From Eubacteriales bacterium (GTDB lineage: Bacteria; Bacillota; Clostridia; Oscillospirales; CAG-272): DNA of 64,000 bases. Made by a program: the position numbers and the translations under genes. The stretch is taken from NCBI GenBank assembly GCA_045128275.1, contig JBGVRH010000074.1:9938-73937 (forward strand), written 5' to 3'. Of this stretch, positions 15,123 through 26,154 are shown one piece after another. The notes under the pieces are model-generated. The model saw nothing but the letters and a program-made list of their open reading frames with translations, had not been told where the DNA came from and did no database searches. How positions within the stretch are numbered: position 1 is the first letter of the stretch; every line of letters starts with the position of its first letter.

Positions 15123-16484
15123 TCAATCCACCAGCTTCTCCAGGCACCCCACCGTATAGTCGCCGCCCGTGGCCATGAGGTTGTTGAGGAACAACACCGT
15201 GTCGATTCCCTTTTCCTCCGCGAAGGCACGAAGATCACCGTTCCAGAAGCGGTAATCGATGGCGTATACGTACTCGTAGGAATCCACCAGCATGGGAATG
15301 AAGGCGTTGCCGTAGGATTCCTTGATGATGAGAATGGCAGAGTCGTCCGTAATGGTTTCGTTGTGAGCCTCATAATACTCGTGGTCTCCCGAGGAGAAGG
15401 CCAGGTACTTGTTGGTGGTACTGACCTCACAGTCAATGAGGGGTCTCGGCTGATAGATGCCGTCGCGGAAGATGGTCAGCTCACTGACCGTGGGGGACAG
15501 GTAGGCCTCCACGTAATCGGGATGATTCTTCAGATTCAGATTCTGAGTATGGCGGTACAGAGACCCGAGGAAGGTGTCATAGGTAAAGGTGTCGTACGCC
15601 TCCAGGGACGGATAGGAGCGCCCCACGGTGTCCAGGAAATAGCGGCTGGCGTAGTACGCACCCTTGCCCGTCCAGTGGTGATCGGTACGGTAGAAAATAT
15701 ACTCGTCACTATGCTGCTCCAGCACCTGGTGAACGGGCAGAGTCACCACGGGTGTCTCCACCCCTGCCTGGGGGCAGTAGGCGTTGATGGCGGCGTAGAT
15801 GCGCTCAATCACCGCCACACCGTCGGACGCGCCCAGCTCGGTGAGCTTTTCGGGGGACAGACCGTAGCAGTAGGAGGTGGGCACCACCATATCGTAGACC
15901 GTCGCCACGCCATCCAGCTCCAGAGCGGCCTTGACCACCACGCGGCAGTAGCGATCCACGAGCTTTGCGTTGTAGTAGTACAGCTCATAGCAGGTGTCGC
16001 CCTCGATGTAGTAGCCGTTGATGACCTCGGAATAGGGGCCTGTTTCCTCTTCCGTATCCTCGGGGGGCACCGTATCCTCCGGGCGAGACTCCTGCTCGGG
16101 GGGAGTCTCCGATTCGGGGGGCTCATCCTCGGGAGGCTCCTCGTCCCATACGAAATCGGTGTCCGAGCCGATGGAATCCACCTCGCCCTCGTAGCCCTCA
16201 AATTCCATGTCCCCCACGCCGTACAGCCCCTTGAAGTCCCCGCTCATGTCCAGAAGCGTCTCGCGGAAGGGGAAGGTATCGGCATACCACAGGCTGATCT
16301 GAGAGGTGTACTCCCCCGACAGGAAGGACTCTACCGAAAAAGTAGGGAATTTGGTCAGCTCCCGTCCCTCGGATTCCGAGACGGAGGGGCGCAGAGACAG
16401 GATGAAGCCCAGCACGCAGCCGCCGACCAGCACAACGGTAAACAGCAGGATGCGGATCCACTGAAACAGTTTTTTCAACTTCAT
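15123..16484 (-). CDS. DHHW-family protein (AlgJ-like partner of MBOAT)
   Basis: N-terminal TM segment. DHHW motif (YRTDHHWTGKGAYY). Immediately downstream of the MBOAT gene. Confidence 0.85.
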   Translation of the reverse strand: MKLKKLFQWIRILLFTVVLVGGCVLGFILSLRPSVSESEGRELTKFPTFSVESFLSGEYTSQISLWYADTFPFRETLLDMSGDFKGLYGVGDMEFEGYEGEVDSIGSDTDFVWDEEPPEDEPPESETPPEQESRPEDTVPPEDTEEETGPYSEVINGYYIEGDTCYELYYYNAKLVDRYCRVVVKAALELDGVATVYDMVVPTSYCYGLSPEKLTELGASDGVAVIERIYAAINAYCPQAGVETPVVTLPVHQVLEQHSDEYIFYRTDHHWTGKGAYYASRYFLDTVGRSYPSLEAYDTFTYDTFLGSLYRHTQNLNLKNHPDYVEAYLSPTVSELTIFRDGIYQPRPLIDCEVSTTNKYLAFSSGDHEYYEAHNETITDDSAILIIKESYGNAFIPMLVDSYEYVYAIDYRFWNGDLRAFAEEKGIDTVLFLNNLMATGGDYTVGCLEKLVD

Positions 16485-16499
16485 GATTACGCTCCTTTC

Positions 16500-17960
16500 T
16501 CAGAACTGGAAGTACAGGAAGGGGTTATAGCTATCCCCCACCAAGCACAAGAGTGACAGGAACACGAGCAAGACGGGCAGGACGGCTGTGACCGCGTCAT
16601 ACACCGTAACGGCCACCTTACCCATACCGCCCGACCGTCCCTCAGTCATCCTGCCTCGCAGACGCTCAAAGAACCGCCCGACGACAGGGGCGATGGGGGT
16701 ACAGGCCAGCATGGCTATGGGGAGGAAGACCGCGTGGGAGAGCAGTCCGCTCTGCACCGACAGGCTCATCCAGGCGTTCCCGTTCAGGGTAAAGAGACCC
16801 TTGACGGCCACAAGCAGCTCCGAGAGATCCGTGTAGTAGAACAGCATCCACCCAAAGAGGACGACAACCAGGGTATACGCCGTCCGCAGAACCCGAAGGA
16901 TGCCCCGCGAGGGGGTCTTACCGACACGGAAGACCAGCTTTTCGATGATGAGGAAGACGAAATAGTAAAGTCCCCACAGAACGAAATTCCAGGACGCGCC
17001 ATGCCACAGTCCCGTGAGGAACCAGACGGCAAACAGATTGAAAATGTGGCGCAGCTTGCCGACGCGGTTGCCTCCCAGGGGTATGTAAACGTAGTCACGG
17101 AAGAAGCTGGACAGGGAGATGTGCCACCGCCGCCAGAAATCCGTGACCGAATCCGCGGCGTAGGGGTACATGAAATTCTCGCGGTAGTGGAAGCCCACCA
17201 TGAGTCCCATGCCGATGGCCATGTCCGAGTAGGCCGAGAAATCCAGGTAGATCTCCAGCATATAGCAAACGGCCGCCAGGAGGATCCCCGCCGCGGGAAC
17301 GGCGGAAAGATTTTCAGGCTTCTCCACCATCTCCGAAACGATGGCGGCACAGCCGTTGGCCAGAACCGCTTTTTTGGCCAGACCGCAGGCAAAGTGGGTA
17401 ATGCCCCGCGCGGCATCCTCACGGGTAACGCGGCGGTTCTCCAGTTCCTCGTTGACGTCGCTGTAGCGCACGATGGGGCCCGCGATGCACTGATGGAAGA
17501 GGGAGGCGTACAGGAGCAGGAGCCAGAATTTCTTCTGGGGCTCCACCTCACCGCGATACACATCGATGACGTAGGAAATGAGCTGGAAGGTGTAGAAGGA
17601 GATACCGATGGGCAGGGTAATGGCGGGGATCACCTCGGGGACTCCCAGCAGAGCTTGCACGTTGGACAGGAAGAAGCCCGTGTACTTGAAAACCGCCAAA
17701 AGCCCCAGGCAGATGACCAAGGTCAGGATCAGCCACAGCCTGCGGCGGGAGGAATACGCGTGGATCAGCCGCCCGCCCAGATAGCAGACCAGGGTCATGC
17801 CCACCAGCAGGATCAGCAAGGAAGGCCCTCCCCAGGCGTAGAAGATCAGGGAGAACAGCAACAGCACCACGTTGCGGGAGCGGATCCCCGGCATGACCGC
17901 GTAGAGGGCGTAGCAGATCACCAGAAAACCGAAGACGAACAGTAAACTCGAAAAGACCAT
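16500..17960 (-). CDS. MBOAT-family O-acyltransferase (AlgI/DltB-like)
   Basis: Polytopic membrane protein with FWRRWHISLSSFFRDYVYIPLGGNR and a conserved His region. RBS AAGGAG. Confidence 0.9.
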   Translation of the reverse strand: MVFSSLLFVFGFLVICYALYAVMPGIRSRNVVLLLFSLIFYAWGGPSLLILLVGMTLVCYLGGRLIHAYSSRRRLWLILTLVICLGLLAVFKYTGFFLSNVQALLGVPEVIPAITLPIGISFYTFQLISYVIDVYRGEVEPQKKFWLLLLYASLFHQCIAGPIVRYSDVNEELENRRVTREDAARGITHFACGLAKKAVLANGCAAIVSEMVEKPENLSAVPAAGILLAAVCYMLEIYLDFSAYSDMAIGMGLMVGFHYRENFMYPYAADSVTDFWRRWHISLSSFFRDYVYIPLGGNRVGKLRHIFNLFAVWFLTGLWHGASWNFVLWGLYYFVFLIIEKLVFRVGKTPSRGILRVLRTAYTLVVVLFGWMLFYYTDLSELLVAVKGLFTLNGNAWMSLSVQSGLLSHAVFLPIAMLACTPIAPVVGRFFERLRGRMTEGRSGGMGKVAVTVYDAVTAVLPVLLVFLSLLCLVGDSYNPFLYFQF

Positions 17961-18330: not shown

Positions 18331-18873
18331 TCACGGTGCCCGGACTTCGGCAATATACAGAATGTGGTTGATCCCGGTGTCCGGGTCGGGGATATAGCGG
18401 ATGACCAGATACTGCCCCTCGCGGGTGATGACCCCGCCGTTTTGCGCCTCCCTGCGGTAGCCGTGGAGGGTCAGGTCGGTATCGGTATAAGCGAAGGTAA
18501 CACCGTCCAGAGTGAAGCTGTCCCCGCCCTTGTGGGGGTACTCCGCGGCGGTCAGATCCTCCACAATTCCCTCGGCGATGAGGTAGTCCCCCGCCTCGTA
18601 GCGGGTCTTCAGGTCGGTGTAGTCGGCTATATACACCGAGCCCGACAGGATGAACACAACGCCGCAGAGCAGGGCAACTCCCCGCAAAAACCATTGGACA
18701 CCCTTGGAATGGGTAAGATCTCTCCGCGCGGGGGCGGCCAGATCCTTCCCTGCTTCCTTGGCGCGGCTCATTCCGCAGGACACCGCCCAGAAGCCCATCC
18801 CCACCAGAAGCGGGATCAGCAGAACGGACAGATCTCCCCAGCGGAAGCGCAGCTCATACAGTACGGTCTCCAT
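18331..18873 (-). CDS. hypothetical membrane protein
   Basis: RBS AAGGGAG. Two predicted TM segments. Confidence 0.6.
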   Translation of the reverse strand: METVLYELRFRWGDLSVLLIPLLVGMGFWAVSCGMSRAKEAGKDLAAPARRDLTHSKGVQWFLRGVALLCGVVFILSGSVYIADYTDLKTRYEAGDYLIAEGIVEDLTAAEYPHKGGDSFTLDGVTFAYTDTDLTLHGYRREAQNGGVITREGQYLVIRYIPDPDTGINHILYIAEVRAP

Positions 18874-19074: not shown

Positions 19075-19140
19075 CTATAGTGAAGATTTTTGACCATATC
19101 CATATAAATGAAACCATCACGAAAACGGAAGGATCTGACC

Positions 19141-22100
19141 ATGAAAAAATTTCTGCTATGGGCGTTGATCGCCACCATGACGATATCGCTGTTGAGCCTG
19201 GGTATCCTCTCGGCCGCCGCCGCGGAGACTCAGACGGGTAGCTGTGGAGATAGCGTCACCTGGACGCTGAATCCCGACACGGGTGAGCTGGTCATCTCGG
19301 GTCAAGGCCCCATGACCGACTACGCCATCACCAACATGACCCCCTGGATCGCCTCCTGCACGGCCATCACCTCGGTGAGGGTGGAGGAGGGCGTGACCTC
19401 CCTGGGTGCTTACGCGTTCCTGTATTGCAGCAACCTGGCCACCGTCTCTCTCCCCGAGAGCCTGACCTCCATCGGGGCTCACTCGTTCTCGAACTGCAGC
19501 AAGCTGACCGATCTGCAGATCCCCGCAGGTGTCCGTCAGATCGGCGCGGGCGCGTTCCAAAACTGCGCTTCTCTGACCGAGCTGGTCATCCCCGAGGGCG
19601 TGACCGAGATCCTCGGCTCCACCTTTTCGGGATGCTCCAAGCTGGCTCACGTAGAGCTCCCCGACAGCGTCACCTCCATCGGCAGCAGCGCCTTCGCAAG
19701 CTGCTCCGCTCTGACCGATATCCGGCTTCCCACGGGGCTGTCGGTTATCGATTCCAAGGCCTTCACCTACTGCTCCTCCCTGAAGACCATCACCCTCCCC
19801 GGCACCCTGACCGCTCTGGGCGACGGTGTCTTCACCAATTCCGCCCTGCAGAGAGCTCTCTTTGACGGTGCCCAGGACGAGTGGGACAACGTGACCGTTG
19901 GCGAAAGCAACGCCCTGCTGACCAGCGTTCTGCTGATTCACCCCGGTCATCTCTTCAATCAGGAGATCGTGGATCCCGCCTACCTGTGCACCCCCGCCGG
20001 CTGTGTCAGTGCCGCCTCCTACTACCGTACCTGCGTTTGCGGTGAGGTCGGTGACGAGACCTTCAGCCACGGCGAGCCCATCGGTCACACGGGAGGAACC
20101 GCCACCTGTCGGGATCAGGCGATTTGCGAGGTCTGCGGAGAGGCCTACGGCATTCTGGGCTCCCACGTGCCCAACAGAGAGGCCACCTGTACCGAGGGAT
20201 TTTCGTGCGCGATCTGCGAGATCCCCCTGAAGGATCCCCTGGGTCACGACTACGTCCCCACGGTGACGCCTCCCACCTGTACCGAGCCCGGCTTCACCGC
20301 CCACGTCTGCTCCCGCTGTAACGATACCTTCACCGACACCCCCACCGATCCCACGGGTCACACCGAGGGGGCCGCTCCCACCTGTACCGAGGATCAGATC
20401 TGTACCGTCTGTCACGAAATCCTGGCCGAGAAGCTGGGCCACAACCATATTCCCGAGATCACCCTGGCTCCCACCTGTACCGACTCGGGTATCCGTACCC
20501 ATACCTGCTCCCGCTGTAACGACACCTACGACGAAACCATAGATGCCACCGGCCACATTGAGAGCGATCCCGCTTCCTGCGAGACCGCCCAGACCTGTAC
20601 CGCCTGCGGTCTCCTGCTGGCTGACGCCCTGGGCCACGATTTCCACGCCGAGACCGTAGAGCCCACCTGCACGGCCAAAGGCTATACCGTCCACACCTGC
20701 TCCCGTTGCGCCTACACCTACCACGACAGCCTCGTGGATGCCAAGGGCCACGCCCCCGTTGGGGAGGCCACCTGTACCGAGCCTCAGCTCTGCGGAGCCT
20801 GCGGCGGGGTTCTGACCGAGGCTCTCGGCCACGATTACACAAGCACCGTCACCGAACCCACCTGCACCGAGCAGGGCTTCACCATTCATAGCTGTGACCG
20901 ATGCGGCCACGCCTATCGGGACACCTTCACCGATGCCGCAGGACACACCCCCGGCGAGGAAGCCACCTGTACCGTTTCCCAGCTCTGCACCGTTTGCGGT
21001 GAAGTGCTGACCGAGGCCTCGGGTCATAGCTACACCCAGGCCGTCACCGAGCCTTCCTGCACCGAGCAGGGCTTCACCACCCACACCTGCTCTGCCTGCG
21101 GCCACACCTATCGGGACACCTTTACCACCGCCTCGGGACACACCCCCGACGGAGAGGCCACCTGTGCCCACGCGCAGCTCTGCACCGTCTGCGGGGAGCT
21201 TCTGGCCGAGGCCCTCGGTCACGATTACACCCACACCGTCACCGCCCCCACCTGTACCGAGCAGGGCTTCACCACCCACACCTGCTCTGCCTGCGGGTAC
21301 ACCTACTTGGACACCTTCACCGATGCCAAGGCTCACGTCCCCGGTGACGCGGCAACCTGCTCCCGAGCCCAGGTCTGTACCGTCTGCGGTGAGGTTCTGA
21401 CCCCCGCCCAAGACCACGACTATACCCACATCATCATCGCACCTACCTGTACGACCAGAGGCTACACCACCCACACCTGCTCCCGCTGTAACCACACCTA
21501 TCTGGACGCCTTCACCGAAACCGCTCCCCACACCATCAGACAGGACGCAAGCTGTTATGAGCCTCAGTCCTGCTCGGTATGCGGCGGACTGATCAAGGAG
21601 GCCACGGGCCACGACTACCGCACCACCACCGTAGAGGCCACCTGCAACAGCCAGGGCTACGTCAAGCACGTCTGCATCCATTGCTCCGCCTCCTACCTGG
21701 ACAATTTCACCCCCGCCAAGGGACACACCCCCGGGGAAGCCGCCACCTGCACCCAGCCCCAGACCTGCACCGTCTGCCAGGGCATCCTGACTCCCGCCAA
21801 GGGACACAGTTTTGGCGCTGCCGTCACCGCTCCCACCTGTACCGAAAGCGGCTACACCACCCATGCCTGCGCCAACTGCGAGGCTACCTACGTGGATACC
21901 CCCACCGAGCCCGCGGGTCACGTCCCCGGCAAGGAGGCCTCCTGCCACGCGCCCCAGACCTGCACCGTCTGCCAAGCCATTCTGGCCGAGCGGCTGGAGC
22001 ATACTTACGAGGAAGCCCGCAACGAGCCCACCTGCACCATTGACGGTCAGATCCTGGACGTCTGCTCCCTCTGCGGCGACAGCTACGTCCGCGCCTTCAT

Positions 22101-22401
22101 CCCCGCCGTGGGGCACACCGTAGGTGATTGGGTGCTGGAGAACGCCCCCGACGTAGGCGAGCCCGGACGCAAGCATAAGTCCTGCGAGGTCTGCTCCGAG
22201 ATGGTGGAGCATGAGACCTTCTGGACGCCCGACGCTCCCGGCCCCTCGGACGAGTCCGGCTCTGTCTCCGAGACCGTAACCGAGCCTGAGACCGAGGAGG
22301 AAGAGGGCGGCTGCCGCATCACCGGCGGAAACATTGCCGTTATCGTCATCGTGATCATCGCGCTGGGCCTTCTGTGGTTCGTGGATATGCGACGCAGATA
22401 A
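19141..22401 (+). CDS. surface-anchored BspA-type leucine-rich-repeat protein with a Cys/His-rich tandem repeat array
   Basis: Trimmed to ATG 19141 (signal peptide MKKFLLWALIATMTISLLSLGILSAAAA). LRR units (VTSIG..AF..C..L). About 10 repeats of 65 aa. C-terminal TM anchor followed by RRR. Confidence 0.85.
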   Translation: MKKFLLWALIATMTISLLSLGILSAAAAETQTGSCGDSVTWTLNPDTGELVISGQGPMTDYAITNMTPWIASCTAITSVRVEEGVTSLGAYAFLYCSNLATVSLPESLTSIGAHSFSNCSKLTDLQIPAGVRQIGAGAFQNCASLTELVIPEGVTEILGSTFSGCSKLAHVELPDSVTSIGSSAFASCSALTDIRLPTGLSVIDSKAFTYCSSLKTITLPGTLTALGDGVFTNSALQRALFDGAQDEWDNVTVGESNALLTSVLLIHPGHLFNQEIVDPAYLCTPAGCVSAASYYRTCVCGEVGDETFSHGEPIGHTGGTATCRDQAICEVCGEAYGILGSHVPNREATCTEGFSCAICEIPLKDPLGHDYVPTVTPPTCTEPGFTAHVCSRCNDTFTDTPTDPTGHTEGAAPTCTEDQICTVCHEILAEKLGHNHIPEITLAPTCTDSGIRTHTCSRCNDTYDETIDATGHIESDPASCETAQTCTACGLLLADALGHDFHAETVEPTCTAKGYTVHTCSRCAYTYHDSLVDAKGHAPVGEATCTEPQLCGACGGVLTEALGHDYTSTVTEPTCTEQGFTIHSCDRCGHAYRDTFTDAAGHTPGEEATCTVSQLCTVCGEVLTEASGHSYTQAVTEPSCTEQGFTTHTCSACGHTYRDTFTTASGHTPDGEATCAHAQLCTVCGELLAEALGHDYTHTVTAPTCTEQGFTTHTCSACGYTYLDTFTDAKAHVPGDAATCSRAQVCTVCGEVLTPAQDHDYTHIIIAPTCTTRGYTTHTCSRCNHTYLDAFTETAPHTIRQDASCYEPQSCSVCGGLIKEATGHDYRTTTVEATCNSQGYVKHVCIHCSASYLDNFTPAKGHTPGEAATCTQPQTCTVCQGILTPAKGHSFGAAVTAPTCTESGYTTHACANCEATYVDTPTEPAGHVPGKEASCHAPQTCTVCQAILAERLEHTYEEARNEPTCTIDGQILDVCSLCGDSYVRAFIPAVGHTVGDWVLENAPDVGEPGRKHKSCEVCSEMVEHETFWTPDAPGPSDESGSVSETVTEPETEEEEGGCRITGGNIAVIVIVIIALGLLWFVDMRRR
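19987..22215 (+). repeat. in-frame tandem repeat, ~195-bp period (38+27 aa half-units)
   Basis: Half-unit consensus GHDYT..VT.PTCTEQGFTTHTCS.CG.TY.DTFTDA. / GHTPG..ATC...Q.CTVCGE.L.EAL. The central units are near-identical at DNA level. Confidence 0.85.
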
Positions 22402-22439: not shown

Positions 22440-22474
22440 CAGGGTATGCTCTTCGGAGCGTACCCTGTTTTTTC
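22440..22474 (+). terminator. rho-independent terminator (bidirectional)
   Basis: CAGGGTATGCTC-TTCG-GAGCGTACCCTG followed by T6. Confidence 0.8.
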
Positions 22475-22610
22475 GTACCGATGGTGGGACTCTGAACCCC
22501 GCCGAGCATAGCGCCCGCTGTGCGGGGGGCATCAAGCTGCGCCGACAGAGGAAACGAGAGCCTCCTCTGGCAGCTTGAAGTGGTCTCTCGCCCATCAACA
22601 GTATCAAAAA
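22473..22610. repeat. direct repeat X1 (distal island boundary; degenerate tRNA-Leu 3'-end copy plus structured insert)
   Basis: Aligns with 25909-26035. Begins with tcGTaCCGaTGGTGGGACTCtGAACCC (compare the tRNA 3' end) and ends with CTCGCCCATCAACAG (compare the tRNA variable arm, 26101-14). Confidence 0.7.
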
Positions 22611-22646
22611 AGCAGGAACACTCCAAGGAGTATTCCTGCTTTTTTG
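22611..22646 (+). terminator. rho-independent terminator (bidirectional)
   Basis: AGCAGGAAcACTCC-AA-GGAGTaTTCCTGCT flanked by A6 and T6. Confidence 0.7.
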
Positions 22647-22771
22647 TGTAATAACCCGTTCGTTGATACAATGAACTAAGCCGACTCTTTCTTTTTTTAT
22701 AAAAATGACGCCCAAAACGAACTTTTTGTAAAAATACCCGCACAAAAATTCGCATTTTTACGAAAAAAGTA

Positions 22772-22799
22772 TTGATTTTTTTGCGCAATGTGGTATAAT
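22772..22799 (+). promoter_or_regulatory. strong sigmaA-type promoter driving the small-RNA candidate
   Basis: TTGATT (22772-77), 16 nt, TGgTATAAT (-10 at 22794-99). Confidence 0.6.
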
Positions 22800-22804
22800 A
22801 ATAA

Positions 22805-22877
22805 TGCTTACTGAAGGATTCTTATATCCTTTGAAAGTCGCCTGATAAGTGTTGGTAGCACTTATCGGGCTTTTTTA
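22805..22877 (+). ncRNA. candidate ~70-nt convergent antisense sRNA (Y1)
   Basis: Starts about 6 nt after the -10 element. Ends in a 12-bp stem (22840-51/22859-70, loop TTGGTAG) plus T6 (22871-76). Overlaps the stop codon and 3' end of the minus-strand operon. Confidence 0.45.
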
Positions 22878-23222
22878 GTCTTGCCCTAAAATCTCGGTAT
22901 TATCATCCATTATTACGTTTCTAAATGCAATTCCTTCGATGCAGGTGCTGTTAAGAGCGTCTTCCATATCAGCAAACTCTTCAAGCAAAATATACTTTCT
23001 TTTTGCTTTAGGATTGCTATCTTTGCGATAAAGACCGAAGAGAGCTTCTTTGCCATTGGGTAAAATAGTATCCTGCTTTTCATATATCGACCCTGTGTTA
23101 AATCTATATTCTGTGCCGTTATAAGAAAAATCCAAACCAAACCAATGACCATCCGAAGGTCCCCAAACACCGATATATTGGGATGTGAACTCTTCAAGGG
23201 AATTAAATTCGTTTTTTCTCAT
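22875..23222 (-). CDS. hypothetical 115-aa protein (island)
   Basis: The ATGA start overlaps the upstream stop. AT-rich codon usage like the rest of the island. No motif recognised. Confidence 0.7.
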   Translation of the reverse strand: MRKNEFNSLEEFTSQYIGVWGPSDGHWFGLDFSYNGTEYRFNTGSIYEKQDTILPNGKEALFGLYRKDSNPKAKRKYILLEEFADMEDALNSTCIEGIAFRNVIMDDNTEILGQD

Positions 23223-23608
23223 CGTAAATGAAACTCCTTCTTTATCATTTTTATCAAAGCAGACTCTTCTGCCGTCGGGGGAATACCAGGGTCGTTTTTG
23301 TTATGACTGAGATAAACATGACGATGAGGTTGCACGCCTTTATGGTCGTGTGCCAGGTCAATGCTTACCGCTTGTTTGTGAGCGTCGTCATAATATGCGA
23401 GATGCTTCAGCTCACCATTTTTAACAACTGCATAGATTCTTCCTGGGGTGTGAGAGTATTCGGGAGCTTTCACCGCATTAGAATCTTGAATGATAACTTT
23501 GACATTGGGATTGCTGCTTAAAGACCCTAATGACATATAGTGTTGCCCGCCTTGCACAAAACTAAAATTTCCGGTGTTGACGTCAACAAATGCACCACGA
23601 GAACCCAT
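23219..23608 (-). CDS. hypothetical 129-aa His-rich protein (island)
   Basis: TAATG junction with the upstream gene. DLAHDHKGVQPHRHVY. From memory it resembles a C-terminal module on some Firmicute phage MuF/SPP1-gp7-like proteins (unverified). Confidence 0.7.
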   Translation of the reverse strand: MGSRGAFVDVNTGNFSFVQGGQHYMSLGSLSSNPNVKVIIQDSNAVKAPEYSHTPGRIYAVVKNGELKHLAYYDDAHKQAVSIDLAHDHKGVQPHRHVYLSHNKNDPGIPPTAEESALIKMIKKEFHLR

Positions 23609-24294
23609 TATACCGCCTCCTTTATCGTGAACATCGAAGGTATCCCCTCGATCCTCAACTGTTTGTTTTCGACCGCAAAAGATTCGGTATACTTGAAATT
23701 CAGAAAAGTGCCTGTCATCCCCGGTATCATATTGCCAAACACAATTACAACCGGGGGCTCGATACGTGTCTTCATTTCGTTAAAACCGCGCAAAAAATCG
23801 TCTTGGTAGTCTGTGCATCCCAAGGTAGATATGATTACGGGAGTTTTACTTTCTATTGCACTAAAGCACATATCGTAGGTATCGGGCAATGCCCAGCCTA
23901 CTGTAGGGATGACGGACAATCCGTAATTTTGCCACGTGCGTCCCAACCATCTTCCCATATAGACATTGTGACGAATATCGTTAATATTCATTGTGGGATA
24001 AATGCTAAAGTCTGGGGTAGCTACCGCAGCATAGGTTTGCATCATTGGAATGCGTTTTAAAGGGTCATTCCATAAACGCAACAAATCTTTATCGTAGCTG
24101 AACATCATCAGCAACTTGTTCTCGTTGTCGGGCAACGATTTCATACACTTGAAATTACGAACCTCTAAGTTTTCATAATCCAAGTCACGAGTTAAACGCC
24201 GAATCACGGGAAAATCGTATTTGTCATATTCGCAATCCCCGATGATAGGACGAATAACCTTATACTTCTCAAAATCTGTGAGACCTTTAATCAT
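23608..24294 (-). CDS. DUF4417-like protein (island)
   Basis: RBS GAAAGGTAGG. Pattern ...FSYDKDLLRLWNDPLKRIPMMQTYAAVATPDFSIY...VYMGRWLGRTWQNYGLSVIPTVGW recalls DUF4417. Needs HMM confirmation. Confidence 0.7.
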   Translation of the reverse strand: MIKGLTDFEKYKVIRPIIGDCEYDKYDFPVIRRLTRDLDYENLEVRNFKCMKSLPDNENKLLMMFSYDKDLLRLWNDPLKRIPMMQTYAAVATPDFSIYPTMNINDIRHNVYMGRWLGRTWQNYGLSVIPTVGWALPDTYDMCFSAIESKTPVIISTLGCTDYQDDFLRGFNEMKTRIEPPVVIVFGNMIPGMTGTFLNFKYTESFAVENKQLRIEGIPSMFTIKEAV

Positions 24295-24365
24295 AGGTTA
24301 TTACCTACCTTTCTGCAAAATTTTCGTAAAATAGTAATAGTAGAGGTAGGGGATATGAATACAAC

Positions 24366-24449
24366 TGCTTACTGAAGAACTCTTATATCCCCTGAAATGT
24401 TCGGTTGTCCGAAAGGCACAAGTCACCGTTGGTAGCAGTTACTTATGCC
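24366..24449. repeat. Y2: second copy of the sRNA 5' box and loop motif
   Basis: 32-nt box 24366-97 matches 22805-36 with 4 transitions. GTTGGTAGCA (24429-38) sits in the loop of hairpin 24415-49. Confidence 0.7.
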
Positions 24450-24490
24450 GCATAAAAAATCATAAGCATCACCTCTTTCAAAATAATAAC

Positions 24491-25180
24491 TCACCTCGAT
24501 ATGATTCCTAAATCTTGAAGACGGTATTTTACTGGGTTGAAGTTTACTCCGAACTCTTGCAAAAGCATTGCAATCCATTTCTTCATATAATTTTTAAATT
24601 CGAGTGGCTGGCTCGGAATGTTTTTATAACGAGAAATTCTAAAAAATTCAGACCGAATCACATCGCGTGGCATTAAGATAGCAGCATCGAGATAATTCGT
24701 TTGACGCTCAATTATTTCAATTTCGCTCATAGAATTATTCCACCACGTAGAACCAAATTCATTTTTCTTACAAACGTGAAAAACATCTTTTTCAGCGTGT
24801 GTCCTAAAATATTCCTGGTCTTTAATCCAATGCGCACATTCGTGACCGACTATAAAATTCTCGCTTCCACGAGCAGTTTTTGCCTTTGAATCCAGAACAC
24901 GTTGATTGATAAGAATAGTGCCTTTAGGGAAAAATTCAGTAGCAAACATATCGCCTTTATGAAAAGTTCCATCGGGCCATATATACCAATAACCGTCATC
25001 GAAAAATGTGGCACCGAGAATGCTGTCGTCGGGAGAGATGTACTTCCATTCAACTTCACAGCCTAATGCCTCCAAAAGGTCATAACAATCCAAAGGGCTT
25101 GCAGAAGTAAGCCTTGCGGGAAAATATTCTTTGTTTATGGAATCGGCTAATTCTTCAAGTTTTTCCTTGGTATAGATCAT
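24491..25180 (-). CDS. ImmA/IrrE-family metallopeptidase (COG2856-like)
   Basis: HExxH motif (VGHECAHWI). Its start codon abuts the XRE stop (TAAATG). Confidence 0.85.
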   Translation of the reverse strand: MIYTKEKLEELADSINKEYFPARLTSASPLDCYDLLEALGCEVEWKYISPDDSILGATFFDDGYWYIWPDGTFHKGDMFATEFFPKGTILINQRVLDSKAKTARGSENFIVGHECAHWIKDQEYFRTHAEKDVFHVCKKNEFGSTWWNNSMSEIEIIERQTNYLDAAILMPRDVIRSEFFRISRYKNIPSQPLEFKNYMKKWIAMLLQEFGVNFNPVKYRLQDLGIISR

Positions 25181-25552
25181 TTAAGTACCTTCTGTTTCAT
25201 CCTTTGTCATAGATTCAATAATTTGCATCCACTCTTTTTCACCGAGATTAAGTTCTCTGGCTTTACGGAGTGCAATGCGAACGGAGCCATTGCTCATTAC
25301 ATATTCAGAAATGTCAGGAGCAACAGTATTGGTGCGAGCCTCGGCTGCGAGGTCGTTCATTAGGAGAACCTCTTCTTCTGTCAGTTCAAGCAGTTCTGCC
25401 AGCTTTGACATTTTCTCCGGTGAAGGAGAATTGCGTTTACCTTTTTCAATATCGCTTAAATAGGCGGGAGCGATATCCATCAGTTCTGCAAGCTTACGAA
25501 GATTCAACCCTTTTTCCGTGCGTTTTTGCTTAATAAATTCTCCGAAATTCAT
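25181..25552 (-). CDS. XRE-family HTH repressor (ImmR-like)
   Basis: AAGGAGG RBS. HTH LNLRKLAELMDIAPAYLSDIEKGKRNSPS. Confidence 0.85.
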   Translation of the reverse strand: MNFGEFIKQKRTEKGLNLRKLAELMDIAPAYLSDIEKGKRNSPSPEKMSKLAELLELTEEEVLLMNDLAAEARTNTVAPDISEYVMSNGSVRIALRKARELNLGEKEWMQIIESMTKDETEGT

Positions 25553-25578
25553 AGTCGTACCTCCTTAAAAAGCGAGAG

Positions 25579-25594
25579 CTGTTCGCCTGTTCGC
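25579..25594 (-). promoter_or_regulatory. tandem 8-mer (GCGAACAG x2 on the minus strand), candidate operator in the XRE leader
   Basis: CTGTTCGC CTGTTCGC on the plus strand, embedded in the AGAGC...GCTCT palindrome between the predicted TSS and the RBS. Confidence 0.35.
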
Positions 25595-25606
25595 TCTTTT
25601 GCTAAC

Positions 25607-25635
25607 AGTATATCATATTTTTAATGCAATGTCAA
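25607..25635 (-). promoter_or_regulatory. consensus sigmaA promoter of the island operon
   Basis: Minus strand TTGACA (25635-30), 17 nt, TATACT (25612-07). Confidence 0.65.
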
Positions 25636-25821
25636 TAAGAAATGCAAGAAATTATATAAATTTTCATTTCAAAATCAGTAATTTAACGAATAGCGGTCTT
25701 TTAACGATAGAAAGGCACTACACCTTGACGGGGAGTAGTGCTTTTCTGCATTTTGAGGTTTCCGAGACACAAGATATAGGCACCGCAAATACCGAAATGC
25801 ACCACAAAAGAGAAAAAGCCC

Positions 25822-25849
25822 TTGATTTACAAGTACTTTCGGCTAATAT
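25822..25849 (+). promoter_or_regulatory. possible sigmaA promoter reading into repeat X2
   Basis: TTGATT (25822-27), 16 nt, TAATAT (25844-49). Confidence 0.35.
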
Positions 25850-25908
25850 TTAACAATAAAAAGAAAACAGCAGGTCGATACGATTGTATCCATCTACTGT
25901 TCTTTATT

Positions 25909-26035
25909 TGGTGCCGGTGGTGGGACTCTGAACCCCGCCGAGCGGAGCTCGGCAACAAGCTGCGCCGACAAAGAGGAATTGAGAACTTTGGCTGGCAGCT
26001 TGAAGTGGTTTCTTCACCCATCAACAACATCAAAA
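25909..26035. repeat. direct repeat X2 (tRNA-proximal island boundary)
   Basis: The first 20 nt are identical to the tRNA-Leu gene's 3' end (26068-87), then a 1-nt insertion, then GAACCC. The internal stems differ from X1 but keep their positions. Confidence 0.75.
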
Positions 26036-26068
26036 TACGGGGCACCCCTTTGGGGTACCCCGTATTTT
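26035..26068 (-). terminator. rho-independent terminator of tRNA-Leu (bidirectional)
   Basis: ATACGGGGcACCCC-TTT-GGGGTaCCCCGTAT flanked by A4 and T4. Confidence 0.75.
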
Positions 26069-26154
26069 GGTGCCGGTGGTGGGACTCGAACCCACACGAT
26101 GTCGCCATCAACGGATTTTGAGTCCGTCACGTCTGCCAATTCCATCACACCGGC
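26068..26154 (-). tRNA. tRNA-Leu (anticodon CAA), class II with long variable arm, encoded CCA
   Basis: Reverse complement folds as GCCGGTG/CACCGGC acceptor, AATTGGCAGA D-loop, ACGGA-CUCAAAA-UCCGU anticodon arm, GAUG-GCGA-CAUC variable arm, and GTGGG-TTCGAGT-CCCAC T-arm. Confidence 0.95.

Follow-up and report, generated by a model that had tools for sequence, protein, structure and literature searches.

A repeat array of putative zinc-ribbon-like His-Cys3 modules in a surface-anchored leucine-rich repeat protein of a Clostridia bacterium

The gene and the layout of its product

The DNA analysed here, hereafter the window, comprises 64,000 nucleotides (nt) of the genome of a Clostridia bacterium (assembly GCA_045128275.1, contig JBGVRH010000074.1, positions 9,938 to 73,937 of the forward strand), and all coordinates are those of the window. 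It contains a gene encoding a predicted surface protein in which a leucine-rich repeat (LRR) head is followed by an array of ten Cys- and His-rich units of 65 amino acids (aa) and by a hydrophobic C-terminus. The units are built of small modules with a His-Cys3 signature, which we consider probably to be metal-binding and to form a stalk. The features of the gene and of its 3' flank are the following:

19108..22401, + strand: whole open reading frame (ORF), 1097 aa from the first ATG, with the stop codon TAA at 22399-22401
19141..19224, + strand: predicted Sec signal peptide, MKKFLLWALIATMTISLLSLGILSAAAA, followed by ETQ (read by eye from the sequence, putative)
19285..19944 (limits approximate), + strand: BspA-type leucine-rich repeat head (PF13306 LRR_5)
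19945..20241, + strand: three leading modules, one a long variant and two short
20242..22110, + strand: ten long (38-aa) and nine short (27-aa) modules, alternating as 65-aa/195-nt super-repeats
21061..21101, + strand: 41-nt exact repeat, copy 1 (unit 5), ACCGAGCAGGGCTTCACCACCCACACCTGCTCTGCCTGCGG
21256..21296, + strand: 41-nt exact repeat, copy 2 (unit 6); a deletion allele has its junction within this pair
22111..22227, + strand: terminal W-type module, GHTVGDW...GRKH-x2-C-x2-C...ETFW, with His in place of the first Cys
22228..22329, + strand: acidic linker rich in Thr, Glu and Pro, ending in GGCRITGG
22330..22398, + strand: putative C-terminal hydrophobic membrane anchor, NIAVIVIVIIALGLLWFV, followed by DMRRR (read by eye from the sequence)
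22440..22477, + strand: hairpin of 12 pairs resembling an intrinsic terminator, with a T-run, directly 3' of the gene

The ATG at 19141 is likely to be the true start. Compared with the ATG at 19108, it is the only one preceded by a Shine-Dalgarno-like ribosome-binding site (GGAAGGA), and it is the start used by public gene calls. The resulting protein of 1086 aa is 100% identical to the database protein P0001. The head, confined to aa ~60-280, matched LRR_5 in Pfam with an E-value of 1e-51 (174.6 bits, cut-off 27.7, 2 stretches), and LRR_8 (PF13855) was matched with E = 1.4e-6. Signal peptide, head, repeat stalk and surface anchor are present in a single chain, which is the layout of fibrillar adhesins and Periscope Proteins, the signal peptide and the anchor being read from the sequence.

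Structure of the repeat array

Tandem Repeats Finder reported a period of 195 nt (and of 390 nt) over 20745-21518, and a DNA repeat search found 7 copies in register with a spacing of exactly 195 nt. In the protein the Cys/His-rich region extends over aa 280-1040, with the ten 65-aa units at aa 379-1028. Each unit consists of a 38-aa long module, GH-x10-C-x9-C-x2-C, and a 27-aa short module, GH-x7-C-x5-C-x2-C, and the general motif can be written as H-x(7-10)-C-x(5-9)-C-x2-C. Among the leading modules, the long variant carries a C-x-C knuckle (GHLFNQ...CVCGE) and the two short ones read H..TC..CEVCGE and H..TC..CAICE. The tenth short module is replaced by the W-type variant, GH..GDW...KH-x2-C-x2-C. 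In total the stalk comprises 23 modules of 27-39 aa.

Profile hidden Markov models (HMMs) of the half-units recognised the long module (A) 10 times and the short module (B) 11 times, always in one frame; elsewhere in the window they gave no credible match, the sole other match scoring below zero (E = 1.1). Between aa 280 and 1040 there are 26 instances of the motif H-x(6-12)-C-x(4-10)-C-x2-C, whereas 2000 composition-preserving shuffles gave 0.38 on average and never more than 5. The original prediction, made from the letters of this DNA, had described tandem repeats in an LRR protein, and with ten 65-aa units in a single frame these are real. Its layout of an LRR head, alternating half-units of 38 and 27 aa and a membrane anchor was borne out by PF13306, by the HMMs and by the sequence. 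The limits that it gave, 19987-22215, are essentially right, with the leading modules starting at 19945, the ten units occupying 20242-22191 and the W-type module reaching ~22227.

The long and the short module were aligned by hhalign from end to end with the His, the Cys and the C-x2-C in register (P = 0.0035), and the 65-aa period can therefore be regarded as a di-module of one ancestral unit. Pairwise identity in the unit frame is 44-76% for DNA and 25-71% for protein, the best DNA pair being units 5 and 6 (76%); adjacent copies in another register reached 81% DNA identity in the repeat search. The central units had been called near-identical in DNA, which is overstated, as the stretch shared exactly is only 41 nt long. 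The two places named as examples, ~21060 and ~21255, are nevertheless those of this exact repeat, whose copies begin at 21061 and 21256.

Search for a known family

Scans of Pfam-A and NCBIfam with the whole protein, single units, half-units and the linker region gave no family for the repeat. The original prediction had recognised no named domain family for the module, and none was found in Pfam-A, NCBIfam or the PDB. All Pfam matches of the module were sub-threshold (12-17 bits against cut-offs of 22-29). They included Rubredoxin (E = 0.008, 16.6 bits against a cut-off of 23), the rubredoxin-like model of rubrerythrin RUBY_RBDX (E = 0.007), Zn_ribbon_3 (E = 0.04), several further Zn_ribbon families and FYVE. 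The best NCBIfam match, also sub-threshold, was the YgiT zinc finger (E = 0.017). A full-text literature search on the motif and on zinc ribbon, stalk, adhesin and cellulosome themes found no description of a His-Cys3 module. One candidate preprint on "cysteine-rich" proteins uses the term for CAP domains only and is irrelevant to the module. The His-Cys3 module is thus nameless in the databases searched, and it is very widespread.

The sub-threshold matches raise the question of iron. If the sites were rubredoxin-like iron centres, the stalk could be a redox-active or oxygen-sensing chain on the cell surface, and it is true that the best of these matches are to rubredoxin-type models and that the hosts are anaerobes. 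The Rubredoxin match, however, lies far under its curated cut-off, and the ligand set is Cys3His and not Cys4. Moreover, no electron-transfer partners are encoded nearby, the surroundings consisting of MBOAT, DHHW and HflX genes and a mobile island, and centres placed once every 27-38 residues along an extended beta structure would probably be too distant for electron hopping. We regard an iron chain as exceedingly unlikely.

Conservation of the Cys and His residues

Conservation was counted in 554 full-length modules (244 long and 310 short) from 120 homologs that are 27-60% identical to the query. In the short module H2, C10, C16 and C19 are present in all of the 310 cases. The long module is nearly as strict, with H2 and C23 in 244/244, C13 in 243/244 and C26 in 239/244. 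Within the window the first residue of the "GH" pair varies (A, D, P, E) and the His never does. The second His of the long module (H21, in H-x-C) was considered as a ligand and rejected; Tyr or Phe stands in its place in 47 of the 244 modules, so that it is better seen as a packing residue.

Two kinds of explanation can be given for such a pattern, a bound metal or disulfide bridges, and the original prediction had named both. In the second case the six Cys of each 65-aa unit would form three disulfides, some of them between long and short modules, and the His would have a different role. This is how Cys-rich repeats of extracellular eukaryotic proteins, on which the explanation is modelled, would behave; it agrees with the location of the protein outside the cell, indicated by its signal peptide and anchor, with the number of six Cys per super-repeat and with the lack of a significant zinc-ribbon match. 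On the other hand, three Cys is an odd number and they cannot therefore all pair within a module. In the homologs P0017, P0020 and P0036 there are runs made up of a single type, long or short, where no partner of the other type is available for a disulfide, and a module of three Cys must consequently be self-sufficient. The His, in addition, is as invariant as the Cys, and a disulfide within C-x2-C at a hairpin turn would be strained, as is established for zinc ribbons and rubredoxin. The hosts, moreover, appear to be strict anaerobes of reducing habitats.

The His can be assigned to its own module, because among the homologs inspected every array begins with a module that opens with a His, and several of the last modules have no later His. 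The W-type modules of the homologs are also informative. They lack the first Cys, and in 80 of 115 an extra His is found within 8 residues before the C-x2-C; 71 of the 115 carry the final C-x2-C of their protein. This exchange of Cys for His fits metal ligands and not disulfides. Finally, C-x2-C followed by Gly at a hairpin turn is the classical knuckle of zinc ribbons and rubredoxin. The odd number of Cys, the single-type runs, the His belonging to its own module, the exchange in W-type modules and the C-x2-C-Gly turn together favour a tetrahedral Cys3His site, and each module would hold such a putative metal site, most likely for Zn2+. Modules stapled by disulfides in the absence of metal are, on balance, unlikely.

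Predicted fold

The original prediction had proposed folding two or three units with AlphaFold. AlphaFold2 models of one unit (70-row alignment) and of three units (34-row alignment) had predicted local distance difference test (pLDDT) scores of 95.7 and 94.6, respectively, and were confident, all-beta mini-domains. The long module is modelled as a three-stranded sheet (strands 4-9, 17-23 and 29-35) and the short module as a hairpin (strands 52-54 and 60-62). The strands 17-23/29-35 and 52-54/60-62 flank the knuckles, which places both C-x2-C motifs at hairpin turns. The resemblance to zinc knuckles or ribbons that had been proposed from the spacing is in line with these turns and with the sub-threshold rubredoxin and zinc-ribbon matches. 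Scattered local Foldseek matches of the models (E > 2) include zinc-ribbon proteins such as NrdR, VdcD and archaeal ribosomal proteins.

Distribution of the module

A first search matched more than 5,000 proteins at E <= 1e-5. In an exhaustive profile search, counted as representatives of clusters at 50% identity, 36,479 were found at E <= 1e-3, 17,536 at E <= 1e-10 and 4,403 at E <= 1e-30. The proteins of this family are up to 7,583 aa long with up to 76 matched stretches; four giant relatives (P0262-P0265, 5,865-7,583 aa) have 26-76 of them. A scan of genome contigs with the whole protein gave only one distant locus (L001), with 28% identity, in a metagenome-assembled genome (MAG) of Clostridia from yak cecum. 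The named hosts are all Clostridia, Oscillospiraceae or Ruminococcus MAGs. The HflX encoded in the window has its nearest homologs among MAG proteins recorded as "Clostridia bacterium".

The partner domains checked in homologs are all extracellular: LRR_5, Dockerin_1 (PF00404), Cohesin (PF00963), SLH (PF00395), Big_2, fn3 and Flg_new. Five large representatives that were examined directly have SLH, dockerin, LRR_5 or no recognisable domain. A small self-contained module placed between such varied heads and anchors looks like a spacer or stalk.

It could also be that the repeats themselves bind ligands, such as a polysaccharide, a host glycoprotein or the surface of another cell, in which case the protein would be a multivalent adhesin and the array not a passive spacer. 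Up to 76 matched stretches per protein, the existence of homologs without any other recognised Pfam domain, and the good conservation of the surface-exposed Thr, Tyr, Asp and Gln (Y4, T12, Y30, D32, Q52) are all compatible with this. Against it, the modules link heads and anchors of widely differing kinds (LRR, cohesin, dockerin, SLH), as expected of a spacer, and the residues beyond the ligands and a few structural positions vary freely. We therefore consider binding by the repeats quite improbable.

Two further observations concern relatives of the module. The relative P0043 is labelled by JGI as "DNA-directed RNA polymerase subunit RPC12/RpoP", a mislabel which probably stems from the zinc-ribbon-like knuckles. 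On two IMG/VR phage contigs, proteins of 413-415 aa are encoded directly after a large ORF resembling a tape measure (L003, 3671-4912; L004, 3737-4984). They have a hydrophobic N-terminus similar to a signal peptide, about five H...C...CxxC modules of this kind and a basic C-terminal domain; the module is thus also encoded by phages of these bacteria.

Proposed organisation of the stalk

The following model can be proposed. In an uncultured Clostridia bacterium of gut or rumen type, the protein would be exported by means of its Sec signal peptide and held in the membrane by the C-terminal hydrophobic helix and basic tail, with the BspA-type LRR domain at the N-terminus acting as a binding head. 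Each module would be a beta-hairpin or a three-stranded sheet with the C-x2-C(G) knuckle at the turn, and one more Cys together with one His at the N-terminus of the module would complete a four-ligand site. Such a site would bind a structural metal, most likely Zn2+ (Cys3His), and the module would correspond to a zinc-ribbon-like fold in which the first knuckle is degenerate. Too small for a hydrophobic core, the modules would be stapled by the metal. Joined head to tail, they may make up a rod, keeping the LRR head at a distance from the membrane and reaching through the cell wall. The long and the short modules would be versions of one ancestral module, whose alternation gives the period of 65 aa. 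More generally, the module may serve as an extracellular spacer in proteins of anaerobic Clostridia that number in the tens of thousands. The number of units could be altered by unequal recombination at short identical stretches, the array being mostly stable.

Several points weigh against this model. Extracellular proteins are usually stapled by disulfides and rarely have Cys-Zn sites. The module has no significant match in sequence or fold to any zinc-ribbon structure in Pfam, NCBIfam or the PDB; searches of the PDB with sequences and profiles of the module gave a best E of 0.23, and Foldseek searches of the PDB with the AlphaFold2 models a best E of 0.07 for three units and of 2.7 for one unit, none of them significant. 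The loop PTCTExG holds a single Cys, so that the first knuckle provides one ligand, unlike canonical zinc ribbons, and in 35 of the 115 W-type modules a fourth ligand is not evident. The predicted template modelling score (pTM) of the three-unit model is 0.52 and the relative orientation of the modules is poorly determined, for which reason the rigid rod is put forward as a hypothesis. The restriction to anaerobes, in turn, comes from a handful of host names and not from a systematic survey. It may be that exposed Cys-metal sites are tolerable and stable because the hosts live without oxygen. All considered, we find it rather probable that the array is a rod-like stalk of metal-stapled, zinc-ribbon-like Cys3His modules; the metal, the rod and the function as a spacer are each deduced and not observed.

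Stability of the array and copy-number variants

The array did not arise as an artefact of assembly and is mostly stable at ten units. The 90% cluster contains at least eight complete alleles of 1086 aa, namely P0001 and seven members from ENA. In the ortholog P0002 (1087 aa, 82% identical) all ten units recur in unchanged order; they are 72-91% identical to their positional counterparts and at most 66% identical to other units. As orthologous units are more alike than paralogous ones, the array must be old and has been kept unit by unit.

Two variants were found. The allele P0133 (1021 aa) lacks exactly 195 nt, that is one unit, and is 99.2-99.5% identical elsewhere; the junction of the deletion lies inside the 41-nt exact repeat 21061/21256. 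It is encoded on contig L002, which is the MEGAHIT contig k141_293284 of the ENA metagenome ERZ27303936. The second, P0124, is a JGI fragment of 464 aa on a contig of 1,567 nt, in which a hybrid unit, with the head of unit 6 and the tail of unit 5, is located between units 5 and 6. This hybrid corresponds to the reciprocal product expected of unequal crossing-over at the 41-nt repeat and hints at an allele of 11 units; a loop in the assembly could also have produced it. Both variants match what unequal crossing-over predicts, and could also be explained by misassembly of a short-read graph at the shared 41-mer.

That the array or its copy-number variant arose in assembly was therefore weighed. 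The 1021-aa allele and the eight 1086-aa alleles all come from short-read assemblies, as does P0124, and the junctions lie exactly at the shared 41-mer, where a de Bruijn graph can mis-join. However, the ten-unit array recurs in the complete alleles and in the ortholog with the order of the units kept, no copy has lost the frame or a ligand codon, and the units, which differ by 24-56% in DNA, are not collapsible repeats. For the array itself an artefact is refuted, and taking array and variant together we hold it to be very unlikely. Copy-number variation is, from the sequences compared, plausible.

The original prediction had expected the copy number to vary by recombination and had named an artefactual array as a possible objection. 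The 195-nt deletion allele at the 41-nt repeat agrees with the former, whereas at least eight alleles and the ortholog keep ten units; the objection does not apply, given the complete alleles and the 82%-identical ortholog. As a whole, that interpretation is partly supported.

C-terminal tail and genomic neighbourhood

The dipeptide "GC" just upstream of the anchor helix is kept in the consensus of the 120 homologs. The tail of the protein (22306-22398) gave sub-threshold NCBIfam matches (E = 0.009-0.11) to the tails of MYXO-CTERM-anchored proteins and of ArtA-dependent S-layer glycoproteins. Judging by its sequence, the tail may be a processed sorting signal instead of a plain membrane anchor.

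The gene looks monocistronic, because the 12-pair hairpin and the T-run come after its stop codon. Upstream, an MBOAT O-acyltransferase gene (16500-17960, - strand) adjoins a gene for a DHHW/AlgX-like SGNH protein (15123-16484, - strand), the usual pair for O-acylation of surface polymers. Between this pair and the LRR gene lies an ORF of 180 aa with no Pfam match (18331-18873, - strand). Directly downstream of the LRR gene there is an island of low GC content (22450-26154), 0.40-0.47 compared with 0.57-0.65 in the surroundings. It carries a DUF4417 gene (23608-24294, - strand), an ORF of 229 aa with a HEcaH motif resembling that of metallopeptidases (24491-25180, - strand) and genes for helix-turn-helix (HTH) regulators, and it ends beside a tRNA-Leu(CAA) gene (26068-26154, - strand). 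The first genes of the island are also found on contig L002, as far as that contig extends. The island looks like an integrated mobile element. A functional link of the LRR gene to its neighbours was considered and set aside: the MBOAT/DHHW genes are on the opposite strand, those downstream are part of the low-GC island, and the LRR gene is followed by a terminator of its own.

Possible significance

Zinc-ribbon-type Cys/His sites are regarded as intracellular devices. If the reading given above is correct, at least 36,000 protein clusters use such sites outside the cell as a building block of surface stalks. This would be a new solution, in Clostridia of the gut and the rumen, for obtaining a rigid extracellular rod from very little sequence, and it would tie the surface display of adhesins and of parts of the cellulosome to the availability of zinc and to anaerobiosis. 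The module merits a family model, as at present it is left unannotated in very long proteins or is mislabelled, as in the RPC12/RpoP case.

A bolder idea can be formulated, which we hold to be a long shot. The modules would constitute a large unrecognised family of anaerobe-specific, metal-stapled extracellular mini-domains, whose folding, as well as the length and rigidity of the stalk, would depend on zinc and on a reducing milieu. Oxygen, or sequestration of zinc by the host, would then collapse much of the surface architecture, and the stalk would be an environmental switch and not a passive spacer.

Comparison with known systems

The folds closest to the module are those of zinc ribbons and the rubredoxin knuckle (PF13248 Zn_ribbon_3, PF08271 Zn_Ribbon_TF and PF00301 Rubredoxin). 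They share with it the C-x2-C-G at a beta-hairpin turn, a small three-stranded antiparallel sheet, four ligand-type residues, a size of ~30-40 aa and the lack of a hydrophobic core. As in zinc ribbons, a C-x2-C knuckle at a hairpin turn is predicted to give two ligands. In place of a second two-ligand knuckle, however, the module has a single Cys and a His 7-10 residues upstream. Zinc ribbons are usually Cys4, whereas here the set is Cys3His, the modules are extracellular and they are arranged in long tandem arrays; the matches to zinc-ribbon models and structures stay below threshold. Rubredoxin (PF00301) differs further in having two CxxCG knuckles and an Fe(Cys)4 centre, compared with one CxxC per module here. 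Disulfide-rich repeats of the EGF-like kind have an even number of Cys and belong to a known Cys-rich family, and the module has three Cys and no Pfam match.

With regard to the whole protein, fibrillar adhesins of Gram-positive bacteria and Periscope Proteins (with Rib, G5-E, SHIRT and similar domains; PMC9704523, PMC8286594) share the N-terminal head, the small, independently folding tandem domains and the C-terminal anchor. One allele here differs in length, which may reflect recombination within the array. Periscope Proteins are defined by highly identical repeats (PMC9704523). Here protein identity among the units is 25-71% and DNA identity 44-76% (up to 81% in another register), and, unlike Periscope repeats, every unit is conserved at its own position between orthologs. 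The known stalk domains, moreover, have Ig-like or beta-sandwich folds of 70-100 aa that owe their stability to a core, to isopeptide bonds or to Ca2+, whereas the modules of this protein are of 27-38 aa with Cys and His. Its N-terminal domain is a clear member of the BspA-like LRR proteins (PF13306), a family whose definition is silent on the stalk, and the module is also joined to many non-LRR heads.

The RTX adhesins, which have tandem repeats rigidified by Ca2+ (PMC7493085), share the idea that metal ions stiffen an extracellular tandem array so that it can extend from the cell. In these proteins of Gram-negative hosts, the Ca2+ is held by acidic residues between beta-sandwich domains, whereas the presumed metal of the protein described here would lie inside each mini-module, held by Cys and His.

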